This document shows positions 3,001-59,132 of a DNA stretch of 59,133 nt, piece by piece. The translations under genes and the position numbers were made by a program. The stretch lies in contig JAUFOR010000004.1 of NCBI GenBank assembly GCA_040285745.1, forward strand, positions 1,364,001-1,423,133. Direction: 5' to 3'. The notes beneath the pieces are model-generated. The model saw only the letters and a program-made list of their open reading frames with translations. It had not been told where the DNA came from and made no database searches. This DNA is from Barthelona sp. PCE. Lineage: Eukaryota. Within the stretch, counting starts at the first letter, position 1; every line of letters starts with the position of its first letter.

Positions 3001-4157
3001 ACACACTTCATGATATAGGACAGAAATTATTAGACGCACATACGTATCATTACTATGTTACATTGATGCAGTTATGCTCAACACTCACTTTAGATAGGAT
3101 AGTTGAACCCAGTTCATTCCGTTTTATAAGATCGTTCACGGTACTTCTTCCTGTGTTCTTCAAGCGCGTGGTTGAACTTTTCACAATAGGGAAATTCCCA
3201 CTCGTTTACAAGCTGCCCATCGTTGAGAACGCTTGTAACGTACTCTACGACGAGCTTCTAGAACTGAATGAATGTATTCTGCAGGTGTGTACTTTAGCAG
3301 ATCTTGGAGGTTTCAAACAAGTTTGGAGCACGAACGTTGAACCTTTTATTCATGGAGACATAGAGTATAGCACATGTGATGAGTTGATTGTATTCATTAG
3401 TGATGTTTTTAAGCAATACCGCAACAGTTTAGGTGTTAATGACTTACATGAGCGCTATTTTGTAGAAATCAATACTTTTCAGTACCAAATCCTTAACTCA
3501 TATCTAGAAAACCGCTCAAAAAGTTCAATATTTGTTGGAAATCCCCTAAATATCCACCTACAAATGATGTTGGGAATTGAGCTCATATCTTTTGAAAGGC
3601 CAATGGATCAGACTGAACGTATAACGTTAGAGTCTCTCAGAGAAGATACGTGTGCCAAATTCTTTATGTTAAGCGATGAAAGTAAGAATTTAATAGATTT
3701 ACTTCATAATTTGATGGATGAGAGTGACTGTTTGCTTCCTAACGATGAACCAGCACTTTCTCTGGATCAGATTTTGTTAAAGACAACACAGGAGTATTGT
3801 AACATAAAATCAGTGATGCTGAACAGTATCGCTAACCCAATTGGTATTCGTTTACAACTTCCAGTGCGCAATACATACTTTAAACTCGCAGCAAAATACG
3901 CCCAGCGCTTCATTATAGTGTCTAGCTGCATGTTAAAGAACGAAGATCGTCCTGAAACGAATGAAAACATCACAGATCACTTAATTAGTGCATTTTTCGC
4001 AGTGAATGATACTAACAGACATGAAAGCATGATTCTTGATCAATACAAGACTGAACTATTCAATGACATACCGGATATTGCGCTTTCCTCAGCCAGTACC
4101 ATGCAGTTGATGCGCCCTTGGCCAAAACACAACAACTATGATACATTTTTACAATAA
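3..4157 (+). CDS. Large predicted alpha-helical (HEAT/ARM-like solenoid) protein of unknown function, probably 5'-truncated by the window edge
   Basis: The frame of the 1366-aa ORF is open from position 3 (RWQSDFFSLHYIIPLSDD-MGKF), so it probably runs off the left edge. It is Leu/Phe-rich and amphipathic throughout; no diagnostic motif recognised. Confidence 0.75.
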   Translation, partial: RWQSDFFSLHYIIPLSDDMGKFHPLITYAVLVAISDLESFHVKSYADDLTSVIQYMIEHMYNHAMVDMLPVFLHDEKLMQRGRINYKFPVSAFSALMKLVLVCIDQLSMKHIELLSDFCFIENSILVKSMYDFLIGTNMKTFCLFLPHLLTRMMLVPHEHNGLLVQLWDLIVYRVTKTDELDAFVTRTLVECYILSFIKLSQLGDLNNVSFLMRYPNERGQVNGQALLLVWFSELKKLFFPKMYILESDLLKVKAHPCEMQHVSFIVHALSLYSSEYGSKSARFVSIMRYYFKHKSIERKSDVWFVLPLSHLDATLSKSVLLFKAVPYEDIQDKLTATFCELMKRMTDTRNSHVRSIILEDKLTFDRIFAFMHDRFIIDEILLKPEFSNNHLLLLSLPHSIHSDKTIDVTHQKPSDLGFITRVLVNSGELQHLPVLFSRFDDLDTETIFILFNNVKFDIKLFRHLISFMLKEEKPAYHYKLFVPYVQDFLNAFFKHHTSKTLFTHLINILRSSPDAYTLLNSAELFITILLGFHLKDNVDDIIMYYSTVYGIAFDAVSSLLIGDRSFQISVLIKLFLPTNLCDYRELIMLSLSLLKKRAFDNEKRYILHEIVSQTFSYLELKDDNGFFQLFFDVYSVYDFDLLDFNNIMSFFLNVSDSCNYSCAYRFLKNHIMVKNYMTQFKSVKNITGVKCIQRIIEALSQSHPEMFVDIINTLSDVPLTSLIKLNTNIENIVFTMIFVLYGTNSAVVDSIVSSHTLLGKLLSISLLLMCYKLQFAEELGVTIFRLFHTIVRLRAKCAGNAYEVDISANTLSSMSEASLNCFLKTKFSVVLDTSFIDNVCFKFLNVFSNKVQAHCCTLLCSAVKDVVSDTSVIHDPLLRITQLLIVLCQSTDKVECVDTVCTVLRWCNQMDDPRRITMVQLSLLFFLDQLEFHHGFEQLYLHPDVFWTVVGLFTDSERINVACVAAYFVCTFLTHAKEVIGDIDVRLKVSQVLRMNQTHTLHDIGQKLLDAHTYHYYVTLMQLCSTLTLDRIVEPSSFRFIRSFTVLLPVFFKRVVELFTIGKFPLVYKLPIVENACNVLYDELLELNECILQVCTLADLGGFKQVWSTNVEPFIHGDIEYSTCDELIVFISDVFKQYRNSLGVNDLHERYFVEINTFQYQILNSYLENRSKSSIFVGNPLNIHLQMMLGIELISFERPMDQTERITLESLREDTCAKFFMLSDESKNLIDLLHNLMDESDCLLPNDEPALSLDQILLKTTQEYCNIKSVMLNSIANPIGIRLQLPVRNTYFKLAAKYAQRFIIVSSCMLKNEDRPETNENITDHLISAFFAVNDTNRHESMILDQYKTELFNDIPDIALSSASTMQLMRPWPKHNNYDTFLQ

Positions 4158-5318
4158 TTATTCTATCTCCAACAATTCTAAGATAGTTTCTGTGTCCTTC
4201 TCTGTAAATCCACAATTTCTAAACTCAAAATGCTCTAACCCTGTGCCCTGTTGCAACCCTGTGATGATATATCGAGCCATTGTATGGTGTAACGGGTTTG
4301 CAGAAATATTAAGGGTTTTCAGTCTTAATGATGGCATCATGGCAGAAAGTGTTTGTAAAGACGACTCTCCCAGTGCAGTTCCACTGATGTTTAAGTGCTC
4401 CAATGATGGATTTGATACCAAAGATTGGAGAATAAGTTTCACACCAGCATCTTTAAGCATGTTTAATCTTAAATCTAAACATTTAAGGGACTTATTCACT
4501 AACAATGCACTACCCAGAAAACCAGCACCCTCGATGCCGATCTGATTATTTGTTAGAACCAAGGTGTCAAAAAGACCTCGATGCTTAAGCAACTTTGCCA
4601 AATATCTCGCACCAGTATTCGTAATCTTGTTGGATTTCAAGCTCAGGAACATGAGGCTCTCGTTGAATCTCAGTCCTTTGCACAAGAGCTTTAATAAATC
4701 ATCATTAACTGAACTGGAATGAATGCCAAGATCAATGAGCTGAGAATCCTTTAGAGCAGATGCCAGTGACAGCATGTCGTCGAGGCGCATGCCGATGTTG
4801 TTGGCATCATATCCGTTGAGATCAAGCTTGAAATCATGTGTAATGTCATAAGATGCATAAGAAATTGTAAAAGACCGAAGATGTGTAAGTTTTGAGATGA
4901 TCTGACCCAAGGGGAAGTGGGATGGGCACTGCTTGAGCACAAGAGTCTGAACATATGGTGCACTAAGCTTCAGGGCGGAGTAAATGATATCGAAAGACTC
5001 AACATCCTTTGCTGTCTCAATCACTTCCGCAAGAAAGCGCTCGAAAAATAGCGTCTTCCAGCTCCCTTCATGCCTCGATACATCACAATTTACGAAAGAA
5101 TGCATACATCTTCGCTCCCAATATGTCTCATTGTCTATAGCTTTAGAAACAACGTCTAGGGGTAAAGATAGACTGAGTAACGAGATGATCGTATCGTGAT
5201 ACTGCTCTGGTACGTTATCTAACGATTGGATTTTGTCAAAATTCTTTGCGATGCTTTGGAGGCAAATTGTAACCAGTGAAGGCACGTATGCAGAGTTGTT
5301 GTATTCCTCGTTCTCCAT
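4158..5318 (-). CDS. DRC5: Dynein regulatory complex subunit 5 (TCTE1-like), leucine-rich repeat protein
   Basis: The N-terminal VPSLVTICLQSIAKNF...IDNETYWERRC...CDVSRHEGSWKTLFFERFL matches the TCTE1/DRC5 signature. It is followed by RI-type LRRs (LSLKSNKITNTGA, LVLTNNQIGIEGA, LDLRLNMLKDAG). Confidence 0.88.
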   Translation of the reverse strand: MENEEYNNSAYVPSLVTICLQSIAKNFDKIQSLDNVPEQYHDTIISLLSLSLPLDVVSKAIDNETYWERRCMHSFVNCDVSRHEGSWKTLFFERFLAEVIETAKDVESFDIIYSALKLSAPYVQTLVLKQCPSHFPLGQIISKLTHLRSFTISYASYDITHDFKLDLNGYDANNIGMRLDDMLSLASALKDSQLIDLGIHSSSVNDDLLKLLCKGLRFNESLMFLSLKSNKITNTGARYLAKLLKHRGLFDTLVLTNNQIGIEGAGFLGSALLVNKSLKCLDLRLNMLKDAGVKLILQSLVSNPSLEHLNISGTALGESSLQTLSAMMPSLRLKTLNISANPLHHTMARYIITGLQQGTGLEHFEFRNCGFTEKDTETILELLEIE

Positions 5319-7243: not shown

Positions 7244-8293
7244 ATGGTACCTGCACAAAAATTAGGCGCTGGGCCATACAATGGAGGAAATATTGTTTGT
7301 GAGGAGACAGGCGTGAAAGTATCTTCTATTGAAGATTGCAATCATTTCCTGCTTAATTGTGCTGTTGAGGGCAAAAATTTTGATTGCTTCTTGGAAAATT
7401 CGTATCCTCCGCTGAAGTATGCACATAAAAAACCAGCTGGATCAGGTTTTATGCATATACAAACGAAAATTAGTCAGGATAAGGTTTCAGAGCTTGATAT
7501 ACGTTACTTTAATGATATTCTCAGTGACTCGCACATAACGCTATCTATTCCCTTTCCTTTAAGAAATAATTTCATCGATAATGTTGTCAGTGGTGATATA
7601 CTTCCATTGGATGAGCAGCATATTTTTTTTGTAATTAAAGAAACTGATGAAAACCACATATTAGGCGAAGTTCCACGGTGCTATATACTCAATATTTTTA
7701 ATGGAGCTTTCAATTGTGTAGGTGAGTATGATTATGGCAGAACAATATGTCCTTATTTTTTAATATTAGAGACACTATATGGATCTGGTTGCACGTATCA
7801 TTATAGATTCAATGCTATAGATATTAAAAAAAGTTCCCACCCAAACATACAAGTTATAGACAATGCCTATACCGGACGCTCAATATGTCTCAATGCTAAG
7901 TGTATGTGTTTTATAACTTATCGATATGGCACCAATTCTGCCGAGTCTCTTATCATCATGGACAGTCAGCGCAATAGTATTGATTTATTCAAAAATTTTC
8001 CACAGTTAAGAAATATGCAAACAAGCCACCTTTGTTATTTTGTTATATTCAGATTAACAGAGAAGGTTTTATCAATGATGTTCATATATAATCAGCAGTT
8101 TTGTGATTTCATCCACATAGAAAATGATGAAATGAAATCTGCAAGAGGCCAAATGAATTTTACTTATTATTGTTGTGATACTATTCATAATATCAATCTG
8201 ACAGAAGATTTCCACGATGAAAACTGTACTGTGTATGGATCTTCAATAGAAACAGGAGGATATGGTCCAGTTGAATATATGTGTAGTAGTTAA
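7244..8293 (+). CDS. Half-length divergent member of the ~700-aa variable beta-rich family
   Basis: Collinear motifs shared with 23118..25211: CAVEGKNF/SAIEGKDF, PLKY/PLQY, IPFP, ILPLDEQHIFF/IPMDENHLLF, CYILN, CVGEYD/CLGEYD, CLNAKC/CLNSDC, DSQRN, FPQL, HIENDE/HIENGE, YGPV/YGPI. Confidence 0.85.
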   Translation: MVPAQKLGAGPYNGGNIVCEETGVKVSSIEDCNHFLLNCAVEGKNFDCFLENSYPPLKYAHKKPAGSGFMHIQTKISQDKVSELDIRYFNDILSDSHITLSIPFPLRNNFIDNVVSGDILPLDEQHIFFVIKETDENHILGEVPRCYILNIFNGAFNCVGEYDYGRTICPYFLILETLYGSGCTYHYRFNAIDIKKSSHPNIQVIDNAYTGRSICLNAKCMCFITYRYGTNSAESLIIMDSQRNSIDLFKNFPQLRNMQTSHLCYFVIFRLTEKVLSMMFIYNQQFCDFIHIENDEMKSARGQMNFTYYCCDTIHNINLTEDFHDENCTVYGSSIETGGYGPVEYMCSS

Positions 8294-15276: not shown

Positions 15277-16365
15277 GTGGAAGAAAACTGTATCAGTGAG
15301 GTTGTCAGGCGCCTCTACGACCCAAAGCATGAGCTGATGTTTCGAGAAGAGGAAGAAGAAAAGATTTCTCATTTTTTTGAAAAGCATGAAGACACTAACG
15401 GTATGTTATTATTGTTAGGTACCGAGGGATCTGGTAAGATAGAGCTTCTGAACAAGTGTATAAGTGAGAATGATGTCTTTTTGAAGAAGCCAAAGATTTT
15501 TTGTGATCTTAAAGGTTTTCAGAGTGATGGTGAAATCATACAACGACTATTATCGCTCATAAGCGTGGAGATTCCCCAACTATTTAAGGAATTTAAGCGC
15601 GACAACTCGAACAAGATGGATGTTATTTTGTTACAGCGAATTTTGGAACAATGTCCACTTGTTTTGGTGCTAGACTCGTTCAACACGCTCACCCTTGGTG
15701 ATCGTAACTCTCTTTTTTACACTTTTGTCAATACCATCAATGATTCTGAAGAGCTTGTTATGATCATGATTGCACAACATGCTGAATTCCTAATGAATAT
15801 GGAGAAGCGTATTGAGAGCCGTATGCGCTACCATTTTGTACTGTTCGCACCACTTTGTCCAAGTCAAATTGAGATCATTCTGAGGAAACGGTTGTTTTTT
15901 AAAGATGCTGATGAATTTGATAAGAGTTTGTTTTGCCGATATGTTGCAATGTTTTCATGTGTTAAGGACCTCTTCAGTGGCATCACATCCCTTTTTGTTG
16001 AAGAAAGTGATATTTCAATCGAAACCTTCAATCAATTAGTAGTTGATTACTTTGATCACTATAATGATTTTGACCTGCCTCAGCTGACCCGTTTACAACT
16101 ATCCGTACTGGCTCATTTGCATGTTCTGTGTAGATATGCACGTGAATACAAGGTTTCATTCAATAAGTTGTTGGAGCAAACTGGATACTCATTTGCTTTA
16201 TTGGACAACGTCTTGTTAGATTTAGATAATATTGATGTTATAAATTTATTGAACGATAAACAGCAGAGTATCCAATGTTGCATTACTCAAAGTGATATGA
16301 AAAAGATGTTGGCTCATCATGATCATTCCCTATTACTTTCATTTGAATCAAAATTTAACTTATAA
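15277..16365 (+). CDS. ORC4: ORC4-like AAA+ ATPase (origin recognition complex subunit 4); start uncertain (GTG 15277, ATG 15211 or ATG 15337)
   Basis: Walker A-like LLLLGTEGSGKI, Walker B-like LVLVLDSF followed by RNSLFYTF, and MEKRIESRM, which corresponds to ORC4 LEKRVKSRF. The C-terminus is winged-helix sized. Confidence 0.7.
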   Translation: MEENCISEVVRRLYDPKHELMFREEEEEKISHFFEKHEDTNGMLLLLGTEGSGKIELLNKCISENDVFLKKPKIFCDLKGFQSDGEIIQRLLSLISVEIPQLFKEFKRDNSNKMDVILLQRILEQCPLVLVLDSFNTLTLGDRNSLFYTFVNTINDSEELVMIMIAQHAEFLMNMEKRIESRMRYHFVLFAPLCPSQIEIILRKRLFFKDADEFDKSLFCRYVAMFSCVKDLFSGITSLFVEESDISIETFNQLVVDYFDHYNDFDLPQLTRLQLSVLAHLHVLCRYAREYKVSFNKLLEQTGYSFALLDNVLLDLDNIDVINLLNDKQQSIQCCITQSDMKKMLAHHDHSLLLSFESKFNL

Positions 16366-20853: not shown

Positions 20854-22404
20854 ATGACAAGCAGACGAGAAAGCAAACGACAAAGTAAGCAATTGGCCGA
20901 TGAGCAGTATGAAAATCCCTTCACAATGCCCGACCCCGACCAGATTTTTGAACTGAGGGAGAAGGAGCAGATTCAAAAAAGAAAAAGAAGGGAAGAGCTG
21001 GCAAAATTACCAATTTGGGAAAAGAATACTCATTCATCAACTGTATCAACGCACAAGTTTAATTTCAGACTGGAAGATGAAGAGGAGGATGAAAACAAGG
21101 GCGAAACTGAAGAAGAACGTCAGGCAAGAATTAAAAAAGAAGCAGCTGAAGCTGCTGCTGAAACTCTCTTTACTCAAAAGCAGGGCAAAGAAGACCTTAA
21201 TACTTTTGTATCGCGCAAGAAGGAGATGTTCTTTCTGCACCTTAACTACAACATTAAGCGTCGTGAGATTCAAAAATTGGAGACTGCCATCAAAAAGCGT
21301 GAAGATATGTTGAAGAAGGAAGAGGAAATCTACAACGAGAACAAAAAGAGGTTCGAGAAGACAGTTCAACAAGCCGATAAACAAGCTGTTTTGGCTATCA
21401 AGAAAGCAGATCAACAAATACGAAAAAGAGCTGAAAAGATTGCCGAGTTGAAGAAACTAAACATCACTTTGGCTGCCATTGAGAGTGAGAAGAGTAGATA
21501 TCTTGAGCAATTGAGTGAGAATAGACGTATCAAGGATTTCCTGGACAGTTTGATTCCTCAGGATTTCAAAAAACAACAGTATACCAAGTTAGCTGAGATA
21601 TATGACTTAGCAAATGTCAGTGATGTTACACAGGAGATGTTTGATAATTCTGCTGAGCAATATTGGGTTAATTCAGAGCGTCTACTTAACATTTTTAGCG
21701 ATCTTGAAGAGAAGAATCTCAGTTTGATTCAAACAAAGCAAGAACGTGAAGAACAGTTTGAGGTACTGAAGAAGCAGTACGAAGAGTCTTTATTAGAACT
21801 TCAAAAGAAGCAAAATAGCTTAGACAGTCAGGTTAATGAATTGCAAGAATTAATTCACAAAGAAGAGATCGAACAGAGTAGTGGATCTGTTGAAACGATG
21901 AAGATAGTTGGTAACTTTGACTATTCAAAGATAGAACAGCAGATAGCCAATCTTTATTCAATGATACAAGACCAAAACAACCGTAATGAAATTTCTGCAT
22001 CAATGGTTGAAGATTTTAAGGTCAATGAAGATGGGCAGCAAGCTGAAAAAGATAACACTAACCTATCATCGATTACACATATGCTCACAGAGATTGAAAC
22101 GTATTTAGATGGAATGTTTGGACGATTGAGATCACTTGATCCAAAGATTCTCGCTCATGCAGTTAAGATCAAGGAACAGCGAGAGTCGGAAAGGCGTCGT
22201 AAAGAATTAATTATCAAGAACGAAAAGGAACGTCAGGCACGTATCAAAAAAGTATTGGAAAGAGCAACTGCACCTGTTAAGAAGAGAAAGGGTAAGCCTA
22301 TTATGTTCCGCTCCAGACCATCTAAAAAGATTAAGAAGGTTGTGAAGGTTGAAAAAGACGATAACAAGAATGAAATCGATGTATATGCTGATTTCTGGGA
22401 ATAA
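20854..22404 (+). CDS. CFAP100: Cilia- and flagella-associated protein 100 (CCDC37-like, DUF4200)
   Basis: ENPFTMP, FVSRKKEMF...IKRREIQKLE, LEEKNLSLIQ and C-terminal RATAPVKKRKGKPIMFRSRP are CFAP100 motifs; long coiled coils. Confidence 0.88.
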   Translation: MTSRRESKRQSKQLADEQYENPFTMPDPDQIFELREKEQIQKRKRREELAKLPIWEKNTHSSTVSTHKFNFRLEDEEEDENKGETEEERQARIKKEAAEAAAETLFTQKQGKEDLNTFVSRKKEMFFLHLNYNIKRREIQKLETAIKKREDMLKKEEEIYNENKKRFEKTVQQADKQAVLAIKKADQQIRKRAEKIAELKKLNITLAAIESEKSRYLEQLSENRRIKDFLDSLIPQDFKKQQYTKLAEIYDLANVSDVTQEMFDNSAEQYWVNSERLLNIFSDLEEKNLSLIQTKQEREEQFEVLKKQYEESLLELQKKQNSLDSQVNELQELIHKEEIEQSSGSVETMKIVGNFDYSKIEQQIANLYSMIQDQNNRNEISASMVEDFKVNEDGQQAEKDNTNLSSITHMLTEIETYLDGMFGRLRSLDPKILAHAVKIKEQRESERRRKELIIKNEKERQARIKKVLERATAPVKKRKGKPIMFRSRPSKKIKKVVKVEKDDNKNEIDVYADFWE

Positions 22405-22423
22405 ACTGTATTATATTTGAAAA

Positions 22424-22789
22424 ATGCTTTTCTTCCAAGTCTCATCCATGTTAACGGGTAGTTAGGGAGAGTAAACAGACTCTTTACAGAGAATTAAGTT
22501 TGGAAGTTCATGGCACGCTTGTGAATAACACGCTATTTCGTAGGAGTAAATCTACTGAGGAGTAGACACGCGGTCTTCCCTCTTGTACTCTGTGAGTACT
22601 TACATCATTTCTTTCTCCCCTTTTATTTTTAAAAAAAGGGCTCTAGAACAATTCTCAGTGCAAGCACAGCACTCGAGGGAGCTTGCAACTCCCGTACAAG
22701 TGTCTAACTCCGAAGTAAATTTACAACCTCCTACGAACATCTGAAAGTATAGTATTTCAATATTGATAGTACAAAAATAAATAGGAAAC
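22424..22789 (+). repeat. Left direct repeat of cassette A, interrupted by a ~230-bp insert
   Basis: AGTTTGGAAGT (22497-22507) and ACATCTGAAAGTATAGTATTTCAATATTGATAGTACAAAAATAAATAGGAAAC (22737-22789) match the contiguous repeat at 42006-42076 and 25359-25432. Confidence 0.8.
22508..22736. other. Highly self-complementary insert (structured-RNA-like or MITE-like)
   Basis: Absent from the three other repeat copies. Inverted repeats: TTCGTAGGAG (22537-46) / CTCCTACGAA (22728-37), GTAAATCTACT / AGTAAATTTAC, AGACAC / GTGTCT, plus internal hairpins. Confidence 0.7.
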
Positions 22790-22852
22790 CGTAAAAGAAT
22801 AAAATTTGGGTTGTAGTTCATCTGCAAAACACTCAAATATATTATCTGCAAT

Positions 22853-23117
22853 CGTACCACAACGCAGCAAAAAAGTGCCCCACAACCAAGCCAATGCCCG
22901 CACGCGTCAAAAATCTTACGTGTCACGCGCTACAAGCCCTGCGAACCACATCAATAAATCTGTGAGGGGATAGAAATTCGAATGCAGTCCTGTTTCACAT
23001 TCGCGCTTTCTGTTTACGCTTCACGTGTATTATATCATCTTTATATGCCACGTGCAAGCACTAATATTTAATATATGCAAGCTATCTTAATATTCACCTA
23101 CTTCATTACAGCTATAT
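22853..23117 (+). promoter_or_regulatory. Conserved ~265-bp upstream element of the variable family (copy A)
   Basis: Near-identical to 42140-42404 and to the reverse of 56872-57139. Frame-breaking indels between copies indicate non-coding conservation. Contains CACGTG at 23022 and 23049. Confidence 0.6.
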
Positions 23118-25211
23118 ATGCCTAGGGTTCGTAAATTCGAGGAAGACCTTGTCATGCAGGCTTATCCTGAGGGGCAGATGATATTTGAGGGCCAGGGCGT
23201 AGTATTGCTTAAGTCAAGAGGAAACATCAGCCTCATTGAAAGCGCTATTGAAGGCAAGGACTTCGTTGGATACGTGGAGAATACGCGTGAGCCTCTTCAA
23301 TACACATCCAAATTAAAAGCTGGAGAATCTTACATCATCGAAGAGCTTCGTGAAAATCGTTTAGTAACCCATTTTGATATCTTATTATTTGATCATATCA
23401 TGAGTGATGAACATACAAGAGGGAGAATACCCTTCCCTTTTGCGAACAATCCAAATATACGTCTATTAGGTAGAATGATTCCGATGGATGAAAACCACCT
23501 ACTATTCACCATTATGGATAGAGAAATCTTTAATAATAATGGGCGATATATCCATTGTTACATATTAAATGTGCAAACGGAGGAATATAGATGTCTTGGA
23601 GAGTATGACTCTCAACCAACCGTTAATTCAAACTACATTTTGTTAAAGAAATGCCAAGATGATACCATATGGCATTACAATTTTTCTGCAGATGACATAG
23701 ACGAGGCACATGAACCTAATATTGAGCAGTTGCATGGTATTGATTCAAGATACTTCGGGTGTTTAAACTCGGATTGCATTTTCTCAGTCCTTCAAGGTCA
23801 TAGATATGGTGAATTGGTAATATTTGACAGTCAAAGGAACCAAGTTAACTTGACAGAAAGGTTTCCACAGCTTAAAGGATTGAATATTAGCAGATTCTCG
23901 AATTTTGCATTATTAACGCTCACTCAAGATGTTTTGTCAATGGTATTCATTGATTTAAGATTTGTGGAAGTGATTCATATCGAAAATGGTGAATTGAAAA
24001 TGTCAAAGGGTGAAATGAATTTGAGTATTGTACGCTTCAATGACTTGAAGCATATAGATTTGAACGATAATTCCTTTCATCATGAAGATTGTGTTTTTTG
24101 TGGTGTTGACAAAATTACAAGACGTTATGGCCCAATCAAATTCAGAGCAGTTGATAATGAGGTTGTGCGTTTGGCAAGCCTTGAACCAGCAGAAGTATTT
24201 TTTGATGGAATAGCGGAAGTGGATAACGGTTCGATAAGATATTACTTTTTTTTCAAAGAAAGGAAGCTTATTGTGCTGCGTGGGTGTAGGCCGGTTTCAC
24301 ATACGAGCTGCGAGATCCGATCAGTTCATCCAAATGAAGGAGATGATTTTTTTGTAATGGCAGAGAAGCATAGTGAAACAAATACATATGTCAAAATTCA
24401 CTGGCGCTGGTCAGAATCCAAGCCTGTCACAACCATTTTACCTCATTGCGGTTCTAATAACCGTGGTTTTATTCAAGGGTTGCCTGTCAATGTTGACCGT
24501 CTTGAGGATCGTACAGGCTTGGTGTATTTGGGAAGTAAGCTGCTTTTGGATCTTCCCCCGAATATTTATGTTCGAGGTGTTCATCGTTCACATTTTGATA
24601 ATTCAGCATGCATTCTGTGTAGAGATACAATCCATTTTTTTCGGTTCAATGTCAACGGGTATGTTGTGGAGGTTCAAAAGCACATTGTGTTTGAACATGA
24701 ATATTTATATGATGTTTACTTCAACCCTCGTCCATTGGCTGAAACACCTGATCATCAGCTGTTTGTTGTATATACACGCAGTAGGGCTGCAACAACGCAA
24801 CATTTACACTGTCTTGATTGGTCAACAGGAAGCTTCTTAGAGCCTGTTCACCTTTATCAGTATTATAAGAATGAAAAAATTAAGGAAGGTAACTTTTTCC
24901 GTAATTTCGTGGGAGATTCATACATACAGGTGAGGGGTGGTATCATTAAAGTATACGTTGAAGATGGTGCAATTGAAACGCATTTTTACATAAACGACAG
25001 TTTACCATATGAATTGAACATAAGCCACGATCAAAATCTGCTCAATAACACTATTCAAGACATGTCATACGAAGAAGAGACCAAGACAATGGTGCTGAAA
25101 ACTTACAATATTGAGGAAGACCCGGAATCGATCAATCCCACAGTGGAATCGTTCCACCTTCCATCGTTCCTGGCCGAGGCGTCCATCGTTGAGTATTACA
25201 TGCCAGATTAA
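23118..25211 (+). CDS. Lineage-specific ~700-aa beta-rich (possibly double beta-propeller) protein, family copy A
   Basis: 697-aa ORF, close paralog of 42405..44546 and 54748..56871. No signal peptide or TM segment is evident. The fold is inferred from the strand-like pattern only. Confidence 0.9.
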   Translation: MPRVRKFEEDLVMQAYPEGQMIFEGQGVVLLKSRGNISLIESAIEGKDFVGYVENTREPLQYTSKLKAGESYIIEELRENRLVTHFDILLFDHIMSDEHTRGRIPFPFANNPNIRLLGRMIPMDENHLLFTIMDREIFNNNGRYIHCYILNVQTEEYRCLGEYDSQPTVNSNYILLKKCQDDTIWHYNFSADDIDEAHEPNIEQLHGIDSRYFGCLNSDCIFSVLQGHRYGELVIFDSQRNQVNLTERFPQLKGLNISRFSNFALLTLTQDVLSMVFIDLRFVEVIHIENGELKMSKGEMNLSIVRFNDLKHIDLNDNSFHHEDCVFCGVDKITRRYGPIKFRAVDNEVVRLASLEPAEVFFDGIAEVDNGSIRYYFFFKERKLIVLRGCRPVSHTSCEIRSVHPNEGDDFFVMAEKHSETNTYVKIHWRWSESKPVTTILPHCGSNNRGFIQGLPVNVDRLEDRTGLVYLGSKLLLDLPPNIYVRGVHRSHFDNSACILCRDTIHFFRFNVNGYVVEVQKHIVFEHEYLYDVYFNPRPLAETPDHQLFVVYTRSRAATTQHLHCLDWSTGSFLEPVHLYQYYKNEKIKEGNFFRNFVGDSYIQVRGGIIKVYVEDGAIETHFYINDSLPYELNISHDQNLLNNTIQDMSYEEETKTMVLKTYNIEEDPESINPTVESFHLPSFLAEASIVEYYMPD

Positions 25212-25289
25212 CATGCCCAGATGAATAATGAATAGTTTCCATGACTACGGAGATATAGGAATACACATTTTCTCCTATTGTTTATAAGG

Positions 25290-25432
25290 ATGATTTTCTT
25301 TTCCTGGTTTCATCACTGAAGTTCGGATATGGTGCCGCAAAACGGGTACCTTCTTCAGAGTTTGGAAGTCCATACATCTGAAAAATAGTAGTATTTCAAT
25401 TACTAAATAGTACAATAAAATAAATAGGAAAC
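25290..25432 (+). repeat. Right direct repeat of cassette A
   Basis: ATGATTTTCTTTTCCTGGTTTCATC...CAGAGTTTGGAAGTCCATACATCTGAAAAATAGTAGTATTTCAAT...AATAAATAGGAAAC aligns to the upstream repeat 41932-42076. Confidence 0.8.
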
Positions 25433-25520
25433 TGAGAAATTGAAATACACCCGCATACGTTCTATTCCATTCTTTGTTTAAAATAAATTACAGGATCGTC
25501 CTGATCAGTGACAGTAATTG

Positions 25521-26392: not shown

Positions 26393-28975
26393 ATGCCAAC
26401 AACGTTGAGGAACACTTTTGAAAAGCAAACTGTTATTCAGAACATATATAGTCATAAAGAACCTCAGACATGTACTTTAAGTGGGTCTGAGTATCTTTTC
26501 ACAATCTGCGATGGAACAGTTCTCATGATGAACGACGCCTGCGAAGTTGTGAAGCAATTTATGGGAAATGCCCAGTCAATTACATGTTTTTCCGTTTGCA
26601 GCATCAATGAGTTGTTGTACGTGGTTGACAGGTCCAACATGATGCTCATATATGCGCTTGACGATGACGAAAGCGCATTGCATGAGGTGAAAATTGGATC
26701 TAAATGCCCTATATCGATTTCGCTCGACTCAACAGGACGATTTGCTGCCGTGGGTTCTTCTGACAACACTATCCGTGTGTTTGATGTCAGCCTTCGTCAC
26801 ATGACACATCTTTTCAGGTGCGGTCGTGTACCTGAGATCATCTCGTTCATACCTGGAGAACTACAATTTTTAGTCGCTGCCCAAAGCGATCCTGTGATCA
26901 AGGTGTACGATTTGCATGAGAAAAAGCAGGTTGGATCTCTTAGGAATCATCTTTCGAGCATTGCGTACATGCGCTTTCTTTTTGATGGAAAGTTTTTGCT
27001 ATCAACTGGTTCAGACAACGTTATTTGTTTATTTGATGTTAAGGAAAGACGCTTTTTGACAGAATTCACAGCAATGGAGACAATTCATACCATCTTGGTG
27101 CTTGAAGAAATATGTGATTCACCAATCGCCAACTCCGATGTCATTGCACGTGTTCTTGTAGCAGGAGAGTCCAACAACGTGCGCATTGTGGACGTAACTC
27201 TTGATCGTTTCAAGGTGAAGTCAGAATATAAACTCCCAATCACCAATTCCAGTCGGAAAAACTATGCATCTGATTATATCAGGCATGGTGTCCTTTTAAA
27301 TGGCCGTGCCATGCTCTTCTCAACCCTCACTCATATCTCAGTATTGTCTGAAACATTTGATGCGATTGATTTTTCTATTCTAGGTTACTGTGATACTGTT
27401 ATCTCAACAGGTTTCTTACCCTGGAAAAAGGAAGAAATGGTGGTTGTCACAAACGATGCATTCGTCGTGCACCGCCGTCTGGGCTCCATGATGGGTCAAC
27501 TATTGTTTGCTCACACTGAGCCAGTGCTTTCTGCATGCATCTCTGCCCGATCAAAACATATGGTAACAGTCAGTAGGGACAAGTCCTCTGTGTTGTGGGA
27601 ATACGAAGATGGATCTTTTGTGCCGCTTGTGAGACTCACGGGCCACACATCAAGTGTTACGGGTGCCTCCATCTTTTCATATTCCGAAATAGAGATGGCT
27701 GTTTACACAGTTTCAGCAGATAGGACGCTGAAACGCTTCGATATCAACACACACAACATCAACGGCGATGCAAAAGCCACATGGACTCAGATTATCCATG
27801 AGACGGATATTAACTCCATAGATATTTCGCCCAACGGCAATCTTATCGCCACTGGCTCCCAAGACAAGACCATTGCAATCCATACCTGCGATGGTGAGTT
27901 TGTTGATAGGCTACGAGGTCACAAGCGAGGTGTATGGAACGTTCATTTCTCACACAAAACAAAACTTTTAGCCTCTTGTTCATCGGACGGCACAGTTCGA
28001 TTATGGTCGATGGAAAACTACGAGCTCATGAAAACGTTGAAACTCGTCGAAAGCGGCGCTGTTTTGGACGTGTGTCTTATTTCTAATGATATGCAAATTG
28101 CTGCCGTCTATTCAACAGGTGTTGTTGCTGTTATCAATATCAAAACAAGTGAGATGGCGTTCGGTACCGATGCACACGACGGATCTAGAGTGTGGACTAT
28201 CAAATCGTATGACGATGGTGATCATTTGCTAACGGGTGGCAGTGACGGAAGTGTCATATTCTGGCATGATAAGACTGAGGAAGCCATTCGTCTTGAGGAA
28301 GAAGACAAGCAGGCAAAGTTGGAGCTCCAACAGAAGCTGTGGAACTTTATCAAAGCAAAGAGGTATGTAGAGGCCGCACATATTTGTTTGGAGCTCAATT
28401 TTTCTAAAAGATTATTGACTGTTATCGGAATGATGAATGACAAGTCGCTTCATCAATTTTTGTTTGAAACTGCAAAGAAAGATATTCCAAACATCCTTTT
28501 ATTGCAGGAAAGAAACAGCAGAAATGAAGAGAAAGAAGAGCTTGAGGTTCTTGAGACCAATAGTCGTAACCTCGGCATGGAAACAACTGACATGGGTACC
28601 ATCCTGGATGTCAAGCGTGATGAAAAGAAGGTTATAAGCCTAATGCTGAGATTATTCAAGTTCTGTAGAGACTGGATGTGTCATTCACGAACGTACACAG
28701 AAGCAGTCCGCATAATCACCAAACAGCTTGAAATACACGCTCTTGACCGCTTTTCTGAGTTGCTTTCTCTGGATATGTCTAATTCGAAGTTTATAATTCT
28801 TACTGTTCAGAGTTATTTACAAAAGCACATAAATAGGTTACACAGGATGTTGCATACTGCTTATATTCTGAAACAATACACGGGAATGGATTCTTTTGAA
28901 GAAGAAGAAGACGGTGAAAAACCACGTATAGTTGCTGTTGAGAATGCACTAAATGATATTAAGAACAGTCTTTAA
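26393..28975 (+). CDS. UTP13: U3 snoRNA-associated protein 13 (TBL3), WD40 repeats plus Utp13 C-terminal domain
   Basis: HETDINSIDISPNGNLIATGSQDKT, LRGHKRGVWNVHFS, LLTGGSDGSVIFWHDKTEE, QQKLWNFIKAKRY and FCRDW are characteristic of TBL3/Utp13. Confidence 0.9.
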   Translation: MPTTLRNTFEKQTVIQNIYSHKEPQTCTLSGSEYLFTICDGTVLMMNDACEVVKQFMGNAQSITCFSVCSINELLYVVDRSNMMLIYALDDDESALHEVKIGSKCPISISLDSTGRFAAVGSSDNTIRVFDVSLRHMTHLFRCGRVPEIISFIPGELQFLVAAQSDPVIKVYDLHEKKQVGSLRNHLSSIAYMRFLFDGKFLLSTGSDNVICLFDVKERRFLTEFTAMETIHTILVLEEICDSPIANSDVIARVLVAGESNNVRIVDVTLDRFKVKSEYKLPITNSSRKNYASDYIRHGVLLNGRAMLFSTLTHISVLSETFDAIDFSILGYCDTVISTGFLPWKKEEMVVVTNDAFVVHRRLGSMMGQLLFAHTEPVLSACISARSKHMVTVSRDKSSVLWEYEDGSFVPLVRLTGHTSSVTGASIFSYSEIEMAVYTVSADRTLKRFDINTHNINGDAKATWTQIIHETDINSIDISPNGNLIATGSQDKTIAIHTCDGEFVDRLRGHKRGVWNVHFSHKTKLLASCSSDGTVRLWSMENYELMKTLKLVESGAVLDVCLISNDMQIAAVYSTGVVAVINIKTSEMAFGTDAHDGSRVWTIKSYDDGDHLLTGGSDGSVIFWHDKTEEAIRLEEEDKQAKLELQQKLWNFIKAKRYVEAAHICLELNFSKRLLTVIGMMNDKSLHQFLFETAKKDIPNILLLQERNSRNEEKEELEVLETNSRNLGMETTDMGTILDVKRDEKKVISLMLRLFKFCRDWMCHSRTYTEAVRIITKQLEIHALDRFSELLSLDMSNSKFIILTVQSYLQKHINRLHRMLHTAYILKQYTGMDSFEEEEDGEKPRIVAVENALNDIKNSL

Positions 28976-32747: not shown

Positions 32748-33009
32748 ATTGAATAAATCAATTATCTGTTTTTTCAACATAATTTCGTGTGTTCAGCAGT
32801 GTAAATAGCTTCAAAAACGTTTTCAATTGTAAAAAAATTTCCAAAAAAGATTGGGTAAAAATATCGATACAGAAAGCTCTTATGGTAGTCATCGCAAGTC
32901 CAACCCCGTTAAACGTTAGATACGACACCCCATGGCCTGTAAATTCTATCAGTTATGCTTCTATGTTCCTGAAACAGTTTTATTTACCCATTTCTGTCTG
33001 ATTTCTGCA

Positions 33010-34887
33010 ATGCACATCTTCAATTCTTTCTCTTTCACCAAAGAACAGTTCCTTGAGGTCATTGAATTCGCCGTTGATGTCAAGGCTCATCCCGAGAACT
33101 ACTCAACAGCTTTAAAAGGCAAGACCCTTCTTGGTCTTTACTCCAAACCTTCCCTCCGTACTCGTGTCTCCTTTGAAACATTGATGACTGATTGTGGTGG
33201 TCACCAAATCTACTACAATATGGGTACATCACCTCTCGGTGTTAAGGAGTCCTTTGAAGATACTGGCGCTGTCCTCTCCCGCATGGTTGATGTTGTCACT
33301 GCCCGTGTCAAGTCCTTCAAGGAGATTGAAGGTCTTGCTAAGCACTCCACCATCCCGATCATCAACGCTCTTGATGATCAAGGTCACCCTATGCAGATGC
33401 TTGCTGATTTCCTCACCATCTACGAGAAGAAGGGTACCTTCGAAGGTCTCAAGATGGTTTACGCTGGTGATTGTTGCAACAATGTTACTTACGATCTCAT
33501 GCGTACTTGTGCTCTCCTTGGTATGGATATGACTGTTTCTTCCCCCGACCACGCTGATTACAAGTGTGCTGACTTCATCTGGGAAGAGATCAAGCCCTAC
33601 TGTGAGGCTTCTGGTTCAAAGATTAATTGGACTCCCATTGCTGCAGAGGCTTTTGTTAATGCTGATGTTATCTACGCCGACTCTTGGTTCTCCTACGGTA
33701 TTCCTATGGAAGAGAAGCAAATTCGTGTTGATGCTCTTATGCCCTACCAAGTTAACATGGAAATGTGCGCACTTGCTAACAAGGATCACATTTTCATGAA
33801 CTGTCTCCCCGCCATGCGTGGATACGAGCAGACTGCCGAGGTCATTGATGGTCCCAACTCTGTCGTCTTTGACGAAGCAGAGAACAGATTGCACGCCCAG
33901 AAGGCCTGTCTCATTTGGATGCTTACAGATATCCGCCCTCAACCCAAGAAGCGTCTTGTTGTTGCTTTGGGTGGAAACGCTCTCCGTCAACGTCACGAAA
34001 GCGGTTCTTTTGAGGAGACGTACGCTAACTGTGTCACCACCTGTAACGAACTTGCCAAGATCATTAAGGAAGGTTACGATATCACCATTGGTCACGGAAA
34101 CGGACCTCAGGTGGGTTCTATTCTCAAGCAAAACGAGACCGCCGCTGCTACCGTCCCCGCACAACCTCTTCCTATCTGTGGTGCTATGTCCCAAGGTCAG
34201 ATTGGTTACATGCTCCAACAAGCTCTTCAGAACACCTTTGCCAGAGAGGGAATCAACCAGCCCGTCGCAACTCTCGTCACCCAGGTTGAGGTTTCTATGC
34301 AGGATCCCGCTTGGACTAACCCCCAAAAGCCCATTGGTTCTTTCATGAGCGAGGCTGAGGCCCGTGAGCTCGAGAAGGAAGGCAAGACCGTCAAGGAAGA
34401 CAGTGGTCGTGGTTGGAGAGAGGTTGTTGCCTCCCCCACCCCCATTTCCATTGCTGAGTACCCCGCTATCGAGACACTCGTCAAGAACGGTTTCGCCGTC
34501 ATCGCCTCCGGTGGTGGTGGTGTCCCTGTTGTCCGTAACGAGGACGGTACCCTTGAGGGTCGTCCTGCCGTTATCGATAAGGATCTTGCTACACAACTCA
34601 TGGCCAAGATGCTTCACGCTGATACTTACATGATTCTTACTGATGTTGAATTCGTCTACGTCCACTACCGTGACCCCGAGAAGCGCAAGGCTCTTCGCGA
34701 TCTCACAGTTGCTGAGGCCGAAGAATACATGGCTGATGGTGAGTTCGCCGCTGGTTCCATGGGTCCCAAGGTCAAGGCCTGTATCAAGTTCGTTAAGGAA
34801 ACTGGTCGCCCTGCTATCATTACTTCCCTTAACAAGGCTCTCGATGCTTTGAACGGTTTGACTGGTACCAAAATTGTCCCCAACTAA
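33010..34887 (+). CDS. Ornithine transcarbamylase-carbamate kinase fusion protein (arginine deiminase pathway)
   Basis: OTC half: KPSLRTRVSFE, HPMQMLAD, DSWFSYG, FMNCLPA, EAENRLHAQKA. CK half: VVALGGNAL, HGNGPQVG, NPQKPIG, EDSGRGWREVVASP, GGGGVPV, VIDKDLA, GSMGPKV. Single uninterrupted frame; likely ATG at 33010. Confidence 0.95.
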   Translation: MHIFNSFSFTKEQFLEVIEFAVDVKAHPENYSTALKGKTLLGLYSKPSLRTRVSFETLMTDCGGHQIYYNMGTSPLGVKESFEDTGAVLSRMVDVVTARVKSFKEIEGLAKHSTIPIINALDDQGHPMQMLADFLTIYEKKGTFEGLKMVYAGDCCNNVTYDLMRTCALLGMDMTVSSPDHADYKCADFIWEEIKPYCEASGSKINWTPIAAEAFVNADVIYADSWFSYGIPMEEKQIRVDALMPYQVNMEMCALANKDHIFMNCLPAMRGYEQTAEVIDGPNSVVFDEAENRLHAQKACLIWMLTDIRPQPKKRLVVALGGNALRQRHESGSFEETYANCVTTCNELAKIIKEGYDITIGHGNGPQVGSILKQNETAAATVPAQPLPICGAMSQGQIGYMLQQALQNTFAREGINQPVATLVTQVEVSMQDPAWTNPQKPIGSFMSEAEARELEKEGKTVKEDSGRGWREVVASPTPISIAEYPAIETLVKNGFAVIASGGGGVPVVRNEDGTLEGRPAVIDKDLATQLMAKMLHADTYMILTDVEFVYVHYRDPEKRKALRDLTVAEAEEYMADGEFAAGSMGPKVKACIKFVKETGRPAIITSLNKALDALNGLTGTKIVPN

Positions 34888-41880: not shown

Positions 41881-41931
41881 AAAAGTAGAAAACGGATATG
41901 AGAGTGACACAATAAATTTGTATTCAACACT

Positions 41932-42076
41932 ATGATTTTCTTCCAGAGTCTCATCCATGTTAACGGGTAGTAAGGGAGAGTAAACAAACTCTTTACAGAG
42001 AATTAAGTTTGGAAGTCTATACATCTGAAAGTTTATAGTATTTCAATATTGAAAGTACAAAAAATAAATAGGAAAC
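41932..42076 (+). repeat. Left direct repeat of cassette B (uninterrupted)
   Basis: ATGATTTTCTTCCAGAGTCTCATC...CAGAGAATTAAGTTTGGAAGTCTATACATCTGAAA...TAGTATTTCAAT...AATAAATAGGAAAC. Confidence 0.8.
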
Positions 42077-42139
42077 CGTAAAAGAATAAAATTTGGGTTG
42101 TAGTTCATCTGCAAAACACTCAAATATATTATCTGCAAT

Positions 42140-42404
42140 CGTACCACAACGCAGCAAAAAAGTGCCCCACAACCAAACCAATGCCCGCACGCGTCAAAAA
42201 TCTTACGTGTCACGCGCTACAAGCCCTGCGAACCACATCAATAAATGTGTGAGGGGATAGAAATGCGAATGCAGTTCTGTTTCACATTTTCGCTTTCTGT
42301 TTACGCTTCACATGTATTATATCATTTGTATATGCCACGTGCAAGCACTAATATTTAGTATATACATGCTATCTCAATTTTCACCTGCATCATCACGGCT
42401 ATTC
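42140..42404 (+). promoter_or_regulatory. Conserved upstream element of the variable family (copy B)
   Basis: Near-identical to 22853-23117. Confidence 0.6.
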
Positions 42405-44546
42405 ATGCCTAGGGTTCGTAAATTCGAGGACGACCTTATCATCAGGGCATATCCCGAGGGGCAGCTGATATTTGAGGGAGAGGGCGTAGCATTGATTAAT
42501 TCAAGAGAAATCACCGAAATCAGCCTCATTGAAAGCGCTATTGAAGACAAGGACTTTGTTGGATATGTGGAGGATACGCGTAAGCCTCTTCAATACACAT
42601 CCAAATTAAAAGCTGGAGAATCTTATATGATCATCGATATGATTAGTGATGACAGTGGTATTATAACCCATCTTGATATCTTATTATTTGATCATATCAT
42701 GAGCGATGAGCATATAAGAAGGAGAATACCATTTCCATTGTGCTTGACCAAATTCTTGGTAATAGATATAATTCCGATGGATGAAAACCACCTACTATTA
42801 ACCATTGATGAAACCGTTAATAACAGGCAAGTGATTCTGTGCTACATATTAAGTGCGCTAACCGACGAATATAGATGTCTTGGAGAGTATGACTTAATTG
42901 AATCAAACATCAATTCAAACTACATTATGTTAAGGAAATACCAAGATGATACCACATGGCATTACAATTTTTCTGTTGATGACATGGACGAGGCACATGA
43001 ACCTGATATTGAGCAGTTACATGGAATCTATTCAGGATACATCATGTGGTGTTGGTGTTTGAACTCGGATTGCATTTGCCTAGTTAGCTTTCGCGATCAA
43101 GAAATTGATGAACTAATAATATTTGACTGTCAGAGGAACCGCGTTAATTTAACAGAAAGGTTTCCACAGCTTAAAGGATTGAATATTAACAGATACTCGA
43201 GTTTTTCATTATTAACGCTCACTCAGAATGTATTGTCAATGATATTCATTTATTCAAGATGTGTGGTAGTTCATATCGAAAATGGTGAATTGAAGATGTC
43301 AGAGGGTAAACTGAATTTTAAGAACGTAATTTGCGATGGCTGGAAGCATATAGACTTGAACGATAATTACTTTCATGATGAAGATTGTGTTTTTTATAGT
43401 GTTGATAAAATAACAGGACGTTGTGGCCTAATCAAATTCAGAACAGTTGATAATGAGGTGTTTTGGTTGAACAGTCTTCAACCAAACCGCATTTTTTTTG
43501 ATGGAATAACGGAAGTGTATGGTCATAACGCTTCAATAAGATGTTACTTTTTTTTCAAAGAAAGGAAGCTTATTGTGCTGCGTGGGTGTAGGAAACCGTT
43601 TTCACATACGAGCTGCGAGATCCGATCAGTTCATCCAAATGAAGGAGATGATTTTTTTGTAATGGCAGAGGACCGTGGTGAAACAAATACATATGTCAAA
43701 TTATGCTGGACCGGCTCAGAATTTAAGCCAATCACAACCATTTTGCCTCATTGTGGTTCAGAAAACTATGGTTTTATTCAAGGGTTGCCCTTAAATGTTG
43801 ACCGTCGTGCGGGTCGTGCAGGGTTGGTGTATTTGGGAGAAAAGATGATTTTGGATCTTCCACCGAATTTTTATGTTCTAAGTGTTCATGGTTCACATTT
43901 TGATAATTCAGCGTGCATTGTATGTATTGAAGCAACCCATTTCTTTCAACTTAATGTCAACGGGTATGACGTGGAGGTTCAAAAGCACATTATTTTTGAA
44001 CATGAATATTTATATGATGTTTACTTCAACCCTCGTCCATTGGCTGAAACACCTGATCATCAGCTGTTTGTTGTATGTACACACAGTAGGGTTGCAACAA
44101 CGCAACATTTACACTGTTTAGATTGGTCAACAGGAAGATTCTTAGAGCCTGTTCACCTTTATCAGAATAATAAGAATGAAAAAATTGAGGAAGGCCACAG
44201 TTTCCGTAATTTCCTGGGAGATTCATACATACACGTAGTGGGAGGCATCATTAAAGTATACGTTGAAGATGGTGCAATTGAAACGCATTTTTACACAAAC
44301 GACAATTTACCATATTCTCTTGATATGAAGATAAGCCACGATCCAAATCTACCTAACAACGTTATTCAAGACATGTCATACGAAGAAGAGACCAAGACAA
44401 TGGTGTTGAAAACATATAACGTTGAGGAAGATCCGGAATCGATCAATCCCACAGTGGAAACGTTCCACCTTCCATCGTTCCTGGCCGAGGCGTCCATCGT
44501 TGAGTATTACATGCCCGATTATCATGAACATTATCATAATGAATAG
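42405..44546 (+). CDS. Variable beta-rich family protein, copy B
   Basis: Paralog of 23118..25211. Start placed at the conserved MPRVRKFE because the 31-aa upstream extension is closed in copy A and begins with GTG in copy C. Confidence 0.9.
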   Translation: MPRVRKFEDDLIIRAYPEGQLIFEGEGVALINSREITEISLIESAIEDKDFVGYVEDTRKPLQYTSKLKAGESYMIIDMISDDSGIITHLDILLFDHIMSDEHIRRRIPFPLCLTKFLVIDIIPMDENHLLLTIDETVNNRQVILCYILSALTDEYRCLGEYDLIESNINSNYIMLRKYQDDTTWHYNFSVDDMDEAHEPDIEQLHGIYSGYIMWCWCLNSDCICLVSFRDQEIDELIIFDCQRNRVNLTERFPQLKGLNINRYSSFSLLTLTQNVLSMIFIYSRCVVVHIENGELKMSEGKLNFKNVICDGWKHIDLNDNYFHDEDCVFYSVDKITGRCGLIKFRTVDNEVFWLNSLQPNRIFFDGITEVYGHNASIRCYFFFKERKLIVLRGCRKPFSHTSCEIRSVHPNEGDDFFVMAEDRGETNTYVKLCWTGSEFKPITTILPHCGSENYGFIQGLPLNVDRRAGRAGLVYLGEKMILDLPPNFYVLSVHGSHFDNSACIVCIEATHFFQLNVNGYDVEVQKHIIFEHEYLYDVYFNPRPLAETPDHQLFVVCTHSRVATTQHLHCLDWSTGRFLEPVHLYQNNKNEKIEEGHSFRNFLGDSYIHVVGGIIKVYVEDGAIETHFYTNDNLPYSLDMKISHDPNLPNNVIQDMSYEEETKTMVLKTYNVEEDPESINPTVETFHLPSFLAEASIVEYYMPDYHEHYHNE

Positions 44547-44600
44547 TTTCCATGACTACGGAGATATAGGAATACACATTTTCTCCTATTGTTTATAAGG

Positions 44601-44736
44601 ATGATTTTCTTTTCCTGGTCTCATCACTGAAGTTCGGATATGGTGCCGCAAAACGGTACCTTCTTCAGAGTTTGGAAGTACATACATCTGAAAAATAGTA
44701 GTATTTCAATTACTAAATAGTACAAATAAAATAAAT
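44601..44736 (+). repeat. Right direct repeat of cassette B
   Basis: Nearly identical to 25290-25432 and alignable to 41932-42076. Confidence 0.8.
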
Positions 44737-44963
44737 GTGAGAAATTGAAATACACCCGCATACGTTCTATTCCATTCTTTGTTTAAAATAAATTACAGGA
44801 TCGTCCTGATCAGGGCCAGCATTTGCCAGGTCACAAAATTTTTTTTTGCTGACCAGTAAATTTTGTGTCCATAATCGCTATAAACATTTACATGGCCTAC
44901 AATGGTTAGGTTTGAGCGTTCTATTTAAAATAAACGCTGTTTATCAACATTCATCCTTTTCTT

Positions 44964-58944: not shown

Positions 58945-59022
58945 GAGATGGTCAAAACAAATCAAACTCCGCCGAAACGCGCATAGACCAAAAATCTTGG
59001 TCTATTTTCAATTTTGTTCTAC

Positions 59023-59132
59023 TGGTCTATATGGTCTATATGGTCTATATGGTCTATATGGTCTATATGGTCTATATGGTCTATATGGTCTATATGGTCT
59101 ATATGGTCTATATGGTCTATATGGTCTATATG
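59023..59132 (+). repeat. Perfect 9-bp tandem array (TGGTCTATA)12 running to the window end; candidate telomeric repeat
   Basis: 12 exact units at 59023-59130 plus a partial unit, following about 2 kb without convincing genes. Confidence 0.9.

Follow-up and report, generated by a model that had tools for sequence, protein, structure and literature searches.

The DNA analyzed here is a stretch of 59,133 nucleotides from the free-living eukaryote Barthelona sp. PCE (assembly GCA_040285745.1, contig JAUFOR010000004.1, positions 1,364,001 to 1,423,133 of the forward strand), called the window in the following; all coordinates are window positions and all features lie on the forward strand unless stated otherwise. 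At two places, 22424-25520 (unit A) and 41932-44825 (unit B), near-identical outer frames carry different versions of an orphan gene. The gene is one of a family whose 63 proteins are strong mosaics of each other; ectopic gene conversion keeps reshuffling this family, and its members were seeded singly amid housekeeping genes. Duplication of the unit, its identity profile, the mosaicism and the size and dispersal of the family were established. As explanation we favor, with a probability of about 0.5, a one-off recent copy of a gene unit, the interior of which was afterwards overwritten by ectopic gene conversion. So far, nothing identifies the 3-kb unit as a jumping element.

The extent of the stretch common to both units was taken from blastn and from the identity profile. 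Positions 22424-22507 of A align with 41932-42016 of B (95% over 85 columns) and 22737-25520 of A with 42021-44825 of B (86.6% over 2835 columns); outside both ends the sequences are unrelated to each other. The initial annotation, made from the letters alone, had described collinear copies with the same ends amid unrelated genes, and blastn bears this out. Its CFAP100-type left neighbor of A was likewise recovered as a match to DUF4200 (CFAP100-type coiled coil), and Arm repeats were found in the left neighbor of B, the putative ARMC2. The unit measures about 2.9 kb, and 19.5 kb separate A and B. Their common left end is the start of a direct repeat, and a 14-nt leftward extension of the homology (22400-22412 versus 41911-41924) was dismissed as not significant, being matched by 275 of 2000 shuffles. 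At the right end the final 16 bp of A and B are identical at just 12 of 16 positions. According to the coordinates of the open reading frames (ORFs), removal of A leaves a spacer of 19 bp between convergent genes and removal of B a spacer of 189 bp between tandem genes.

In unit B the left repeat (41932-42076), the upstream region (42140-42404), the coding sequence (CDS; 42405-44546, 713 aa) and the right repeat (44601-44736) follow each other. Unit A has the same order. Its left repeat begins at 22424-22507 with an edge block and the first 11 nt of a core, is split by a 229-bp insertion and resumes at 22737-22852, which corresponds to B 42021-42139 and comprises the remainder of the core (to 22789) and a spacer specific to A and B. 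The upstream region of the family, probably promoter and 5' leader, occupies 22853-23117 (265 bp), the CDS 23118-25211 (697 aa) and the right repeat 25290-25432. A further copy of the gene, C, was found on the reverse strand at 57139-54748; it consists of the upstream region (57139-56872) and a CDS of 707 aa (56871-54748) and shows 84.5-86.2% identity to A and B by blastn. The homology of C reaches from 265 bp before the ATG, corresponding to A 22853, to the stop codon. In flank alignments no trace of the outer frames or of the repeat was detected at C, the spacer of A and B is also absent upstream of it, and a convergent ORF stops 10 bp from its stop codon.

In the outer frames, which in A occupy 22424-22507, 22737-22852 and 25236-25520, both units agree at 467 of 478 positions (97.7%), composed of 81/84, 115/116 and 271/278 in the three blocks from left to right. 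In the interior 245 of 265 positions of the upstream region and 1777 of 2073 positions of the CDS (85.7%) are identical; between A and C the upstream region agrees at 239 of 265 positions, and among all three copies it is 90-92.5% identical. In steps of 100 bp the identity of A and B amounts to 0.99, 0.99, 0.94 and 0.87, then varies from 0.67 to 0.95 within the CDS, with lows of 0.67-0.80, and rises again to 0.98-0.99 beyond the stop codon. The fall starts about 80 bp inside the start of the homology to C, and the recovery lies just past the end of this homology at the stop codon. Both changes thus match the boundaries of the homology to C, and the stretch inside these boundaries is the one which can be converted by other paralogs. 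Within the CDS the number of synonymous substitutions per site (dS) is 0.19-0.24, ranging from 0.05 to 0.48 per 80 codons, with a ratio of nonsynonymous to synonymous substitutions (dN/dS) of 0.63-0.72, and the synonymous divergence is many times that of the non-coding frames.

The mosaic structure is apparent from the three copies in the window as well as from the whole family. Among A, B and C, 442 sites at which two copies agree against the third are arranged in 210 runs, compared with 292 ± 10 runs after shuffling (0 of 5000 shuffles), and the longest run comprises 21 sites versus 6.4 in the shuffles. In windows of 50 residues each of these copies is 98-100% identical to successive different paralogs on other contigs. 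Residues 226-350 of A are 98-100% identical to the family protein P0020, although the pair shares about 70% overall, and C represents a patchwork of P0016, P0010, P0014 and P0011. The product of B, which is an annotated protein, shares 73% identity with that of A and 96% with PCE1_001178, encoded on another contig; the differences from PCE1_001178 lie in patches. In 20 of 465 protein pairs both partners were identical over runs of 40 or more polymorphic sites, compared with 1.3 such pairs on average and 3 at most when the columns were permuted 100 times; for this test 31 of 42 aligned rows were used, leaving out one 602-aa protein and ten divergent or truncated rows (P0032-P0041). Reading frames are intact in A, B and C.

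With a word-indexed search 41 relatives were identified, and a full HMMER scan of 1.84 billion representatives yielded only 21 clusters (50% identity). All named members are hypothetical proteins of Barthelona sp. PCE, and the earlier description of the gene as a variable orphan is supported. Counting cluster members the family comprises 63 proteins, 54 of at least 660 aa and nine truncated ones of 144-602 aa. None of 97 pattern matches to the family profile in metagenome contigs and none of 98 in viral contigs was confirmed, and a 29-nt invariant stretch of the upstream region had no match in metagenome contigs. The genome is described as comprising 10.2 Mb on 8 contigs with 5064 proteins and 4.46% repeats, and is reported as the smallest of any free-living eukaryote (PMC11316075). 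The family therein accounts for 63 of 5064 proteins (1.2%), and the roughly 54 full-length genes with their upstream regions are estimated at about 1.3% of the DNA, which would be a large share of the sequence scored as repetitive. In the literature we found no description of the family among the papers listed and no paper linking Barthelona with gene conversion; the text of PMC11316075 contains no occurrence of "gene famil", and its supplements, which lay outside the search, may list repeat families or orthogroups including this one.

Members of the family are spread over seven contigs as singletons by locus-tag order. Locus-tag gaps of at most 2 occurred three times (1.7 expected) and gaps of at most 12 nine times (9.5 expected), the expectation being based on approximate tag ranges per contig; members are thus adjacent no more often than under random placement. 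Two pairs are adjacent, PCE1_002815/002816 and PCE1_002784/002785. A sub-family of six members (P0033 and P0063-P0067), which are 88-98% identical and located on four contigs, indicates recent spread or recent homogenization. Furthermore, P0042 (PCE1_002956, on another contig) is a protein kinase of 958 aa (PF07714/PF00069), the first 70 or so residues of which are 77% identical to the N-terminus of the family; it is either a recombination chimera or a merged gene model.

A degenerate direct repeat of about 140 bp, reported earlier both upstream and downstream of the ORF and with its left copy starting exactly at the unit boundary, was found as described in A and B. The repeat is composed of two conserved islands, the edge block and the core. 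The edge block of 24-26 bp lies at the extreme left edge (B 41932-41955 versus B 44601-44625; in the right repeat of A it starts at 25290), and its alignment score was reached by none of 2000 shuffles. The core of 74 bp is 86.5% identical between B 42006-42076 and A 25359-25432 (E ~1e-17). The 45-50 bases separating both islands are not alignable between left and right repeats, and past the core no significant alignment of left and right was obtained (972 and 1118 of 2000 shuffles). Stretching the left repeat of B to the stop codon of the neighboring gene was rejected as well, as 1929 and 1895 of 2000 shuffles score equally high. Four times the core occurs in the window, always at A or B, and no solo repeat or further core copy was detected in these 59 kb. 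Within a unit the left and right cores are 82-86% identical, whereas the same repeat is 96-99% identical between A and B; the repeats were therefore not made at insertion but are older than the split of A and B. The right repeat ends at 25432 in A and 44736 in B, which leaves 88-89 bp to the right end of the unit. Hexamers of the AATAAA type, as read from the sequence, terminate the core, and by ORF coordinates the left repeat lies 19-51 bp past the stop of a co-oriented upstream gene at both A and B; the repeat may have a role in 3'-end formation.

An RNA gene in the repeat or in the upstream region was considered and rejected. Rfam gave no match at gathering thresholds over the window and none at E <= 1 over 22380-23140, and a search for tRNAs found none. 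The right repeat folds with a z-score of -2.8 versus shuffles and the left copy with 0.2, and since the left repeat does not fold better than its shuffles there is no structure common to both. In the initial annotation the right end was seen as marked by a small hairpin with a 5-bp stem and a 3-nt loop, overlapping the palindrome CTGATCAG. Both were read from the sequence of A (25491-25508; hairpin 25491-25503, CTGATCAG 25501-25508) and are conserved in B, but they occur at chance-level frequency, with 107 perfect hairpins of this kind and three CTGATCAG sites (0.9 expected) in the window, and were rejected as an end signal.

The units were moreover compared with the known classes of mobile elements. 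No target-site duplication (TSD) of at least 4 bp common to A and B was detected within 6 bp on either side of the ends, and the local scores of the 60-nt ends, which would reveal terminal inverted repeats (TIRs), were reached by 917 and 364 of 1000 shuffles. Among 26 ORFs scanned in the window no transposase, reverse transcriptase (RT) or integrase domain was found, so that the earlier statement of no visible transposase, RT or TSD holds. Elements bounded by long terminal repeats, including terminal-repeat retrotransposons in miniature and large retrotransposon derivatives, were rejected, as the right repeat falls short of the right end with an unalignable remainder, the repeats are too diverged and there is no TSD. 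TIR-type DNA transposons, miniature inverted-repeat transposable elements (MITEs) and Pack-type elements were rejected for lack of TIR and TSD. Helitrons have 5' TC and 3' CTRR termini with a subterminal 3' hairpin and insert between A and T; the ends ATG(C/A)TTTTC... and ...TTG do not agree with such termini, and a Helitron was likewise rejected. The hairpin located 17 bp from the right end is one of the 107 mentioned above. Collinear copies, unrelated flanks and the absence of element hallmarks correspond to a dispersed segmental duplication, and no further copy of the outer frames beyond A and B was present in the window. The 63 mutually mosaic paralogs and the conserved flanking blocks, namely the 265-bp upstream region and near-invariant termini, correspond to a conversion-driven variant family as it is generally understood.

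In the favored explanation A and B would be sister loci of the Barthelona-restricted family. A self-contained unit of about 2.9 kb would recently have given rise to a second copy in another intergenic spacer, at a distance of 19.5 kb and through a non-homologous join. The unit starts with a 140-bp module resembling a 3' end, which is followed by the spacer, the upstream region of 265 bp, the CDS and finally a 3' flank in which a second, older copy of the module lies. It is the near-identity of the frames which points to one recent copy event of a discrete unit. The part from the upstream region to the stop codon, which is homologous to about 60 other paralogs, would then have been overwritten piecemeal by ectopic gene conversion, and the outer frames, without a homolog at most donor loci, would have kept their near-identity. 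Sparing of the frames during conversion of the interior would make the pair resemble a conserved cassette that encloses a variable gene. The repeat would be older than the copy event and, in the simplest view, either left over from the junction of two genes arranged head to tail or the result of duplicating a 3'-end module; a stretch slightly exceeding one period of a head-to-tail gene pair would yield the layout repeat-gene-repeat. We infer the order of these events and the non-homologous insertion, and the same applies to a role of the repeat and to any function of the protein.

Several observations weigh against this explanation. With spacers of 19 bp and 189 bp both A and B resemble filled sites, and arbitrary breakpoints of a one-off event would hit the start of the repeat, where the left end lies, by chance only. 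Singleton members on seven contigs point to a recurrent way of seeding loci. PCE1_001178, so similar to the protein of B, could belong to a third copy of the whole unit. As conversion resets the similarity of the interior, the lack of frames at C is no proof that it never had them, and the full-length DNA copies compared are three (A, B and C).

The alternative favored in the initial annotation is a non-autonomous unit which disperses the gene family. A cassette of about 2.9 kb with defined ends would have been inserted repeatedly and thereby seeded the family, moved either by an enzyme encoded elsewhere or by way of circles or linear fragments from head-to-tail copies. We consider this possible but doubtful. 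The parts of the proposal that stand are the same two ends in unrelated contexts with the left one at the start of the left repeat, the typical spacers restored by removal of either unit, and the dispersal of an orphan family as singletons; the close sub-family on four contigs and the two adjacent pairs fit as well, and the foldback insertion in A hints at the presence of some mobile DNA in the genome. However, the frame was seen at two copies only, neither a TSD nor a TIR nor a hallmark of any known element class was detected, the window holds no candidate enzyme and no solo repeat or other core copy, and the repeats are far older than the split of A and B, with the right one ending short of the unit. 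That C shares neither end counts only weakly, since conversion decouples the similarity of the interior from the age of a locus. A more far-reaching version, in which a mobile cassette insulates itself by 3'-end modules on either side of promoter and gene and seeds loci that serve as donors and acceptors of a conversion system diversifying an intracellular beta-propeller recognition protein, appears unlikely to us. Slightly less probable again is that the frames are regulatory modules, for example an upstream terminator or insulator and a downstream 3'-end signal, kept alike by selection or by conversion between A and B, which would imply no recent copy. Constraint of this kind would explain why the edge block and the core alone are alignable between left and right, and the hexamers and the position behind the stop of a co-oriented gene are in agreement with it, but C is intact and annotated without either module, and the identities of 115/116 and 271/278 extend over stretches which look unconstrained. 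Finally, it is hardly credible that the mosaicism is an artifact of short-read polishing among paralogs and that the family evolves by plain divergence. The assembly was indeed generated from Nanopore reads corrected with Illumina reads (PMC11316075, section 6), but the identity of the tracts switches from about 100% to about 70% across hundreds of bases and from contig to contig, far beyond what polishing produces, and intact reading frames were retained in all three copies.

The units and their gene family can be set beside several known systems. Silent variant surface glycoprotein (VSG) cassettes of Trypanosoma brucei, with 70-bp upstream repeats and conserved 3' ends, likewise present a variable gene between conserved blocks, and VSG genes are also numerous dispersed or arrayed paralogs, the variants of which are mosaics formed by segmental gene conversion. 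Such conversion dynamics are textbook knowledge for antigen families of parasites. Barthelona, however, is free-living, its product has no signal peptide or membrane segment in a simple hydropathy scan, the blocks shared by the whole family are the upstream region and the coding termini, with the core at A and B only, and to our knowledge no expression site is known for the family. WD40 domains of fungal NLR-type proteins (HET-E/D/R) are, as the product here appears to be, intracellular beta-propellers diversified by recombination or conversion among similar units; there, repeats are exchanged inside genes with NACHT and effector domains, whereas here whole dispersed genes of about 700 aa trade tracts and no Pfam domain is detected. 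In Pack-type Mutator-like elements (Pack-MULEs) and gene captures by Helitrons, as in the units here, a gene of host type and its flanking sequence recur at several unrelated places while the element itself encodes no enzyme; they differ from the units by their terminal features, and the gene in the units keeps its own conserved upstream region and an intact frame. Ordinary dispersed segmental duplication combined with interlocus gene conversion accounts for two collinear copies in unrelated flanks without hallmarks, the interior being overwritten or homogenized by paralogs; the situation here differs from it in that the common left end falls at the beginning of a direct repeat within the unit and that seeding of the family has reached more than 50 separate places in a genome of 10.2 Mb.

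A conversion-driven orphan family is unexpected in a streamlined free-living heterotroph with a product that looks intracellular. If the common frame is a dispersal vehicle, it represents an unusual gene-moving unit; if it is not, the pair is a clean example of conversion making a plain duplication look like a cassette. Should mobility and conversion both apply, a free-living bacterivore would possess an immune-like or contingency repertoire, dispersed by a type of element that lacks all known hallmarks.

In a Pfam scan of the A and B proteins no family, WD40 included, was matched at E <= 0.01. An AlphaFold (AF2) model built from the family alignment is all-beta, with a predicted local distance difference test (pLDDT) of 75.1 and a predicted template modeling score (pTM) of 0.54. 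Residues 350-680 or so match many beta-propellers with Z-scores of 10-13.4 (5uzw_A: Z 13.4, root-mean-square deviation 5.4, 291 residues aligned), and Foldseek returned double-propeller proteins at E 1e-10, yet with TM scores of 0.2-0.3. The predicted fold is thus all-beta with a beta-propeller in the C-terminal half; the N-terminal half is all-beta in the model, and the propeller matches concern the C-terminal half. In a protein atlas only sub-threshold beta-propeller look-alikes were found (best feature score 0.81). The fold says nothing on function. A crude Kyte-Doolittle scan revealed no hydrophobic N-terminus and no membrane-type segment (maximum mean over 19 aa 1.41); the product may be intracellular, and the favored explanation, as a whole about as probable as not, takes the family proteins to be soluble and of about 700 aa. 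Both termini are near-invariant across the family, and the variable positions are distributed over the chain, being densest around residues 101-120, 381-400, 541-560 and 581-600. The CDS of A ends 8 codons early with TAA (25198-25211), where B (44534-44546) and C (54748-54760) have TAT and read on into a tail rich in His; the part following ...MPD differs in length and frame across the family.

The insertion in the left core of A (22508-22736, 229 bp) is absent from B, which has 4 bases at this position, and from both right repeats, and no further copy was found in the window. It contains a foldback of 201 bp (22537-22737) with imperfect inverted ends (22537-22563 and 22707-22737), the arms of which extend exactly to the right junction of the insertion, and folds into a long imperfect hairpin with a z-score of -5.7 (0 of 200 shuffles). 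It looks like a foldback or MITE-like element that split the left repeat of A. The insertion had been overlooked in the initial annotation, as had C and a fourth family member in the window, D (7244-8293). D is an annotated protein of 349 aa, truncated to the N-terminal half, with 35% identity by tblastn and an hmmsearch match to profile positions 16-344 (E 1e-86); it has no conserved upstream region. A six-frame profile search yielded no additional family fragment in the window.

The upstream region carries two CACGTG boxes and an ACGCGT palindrome, and given the compactness of the genome 265 bp is a considerable length for a promoter. The 2 kb or so upstream of C (57140-59133) contain no ORF of at least 100 aa on either strand (longest 84 aa), which is unusual where most spacers in the window are shorter than 200 bp; a family fragment or an Rfam match was not found there. 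Elsewhere convergent ORFs overlap or abut at their stops according to ORF coordinates, at 28959-28975 (-17), 16323-16365 (-43) and 4157-4158 (0 bp), from which it follows that little spacer is tolerated by the genome. The other genes of the window are ordinary and encode, besides the DUF4200 and Arm-repeat proteins, WD40/Utp13, a tRNA synthetase, TRAPP, WASH and others. One ORF of 651 aa (32932-34887) combines ornithine/aspartate carbamoyltransferase domains (PF02729, PF00185) with an amino-acid (carbamate-type) kinase domain (PF00696) and appears to be an enzyme fusion.

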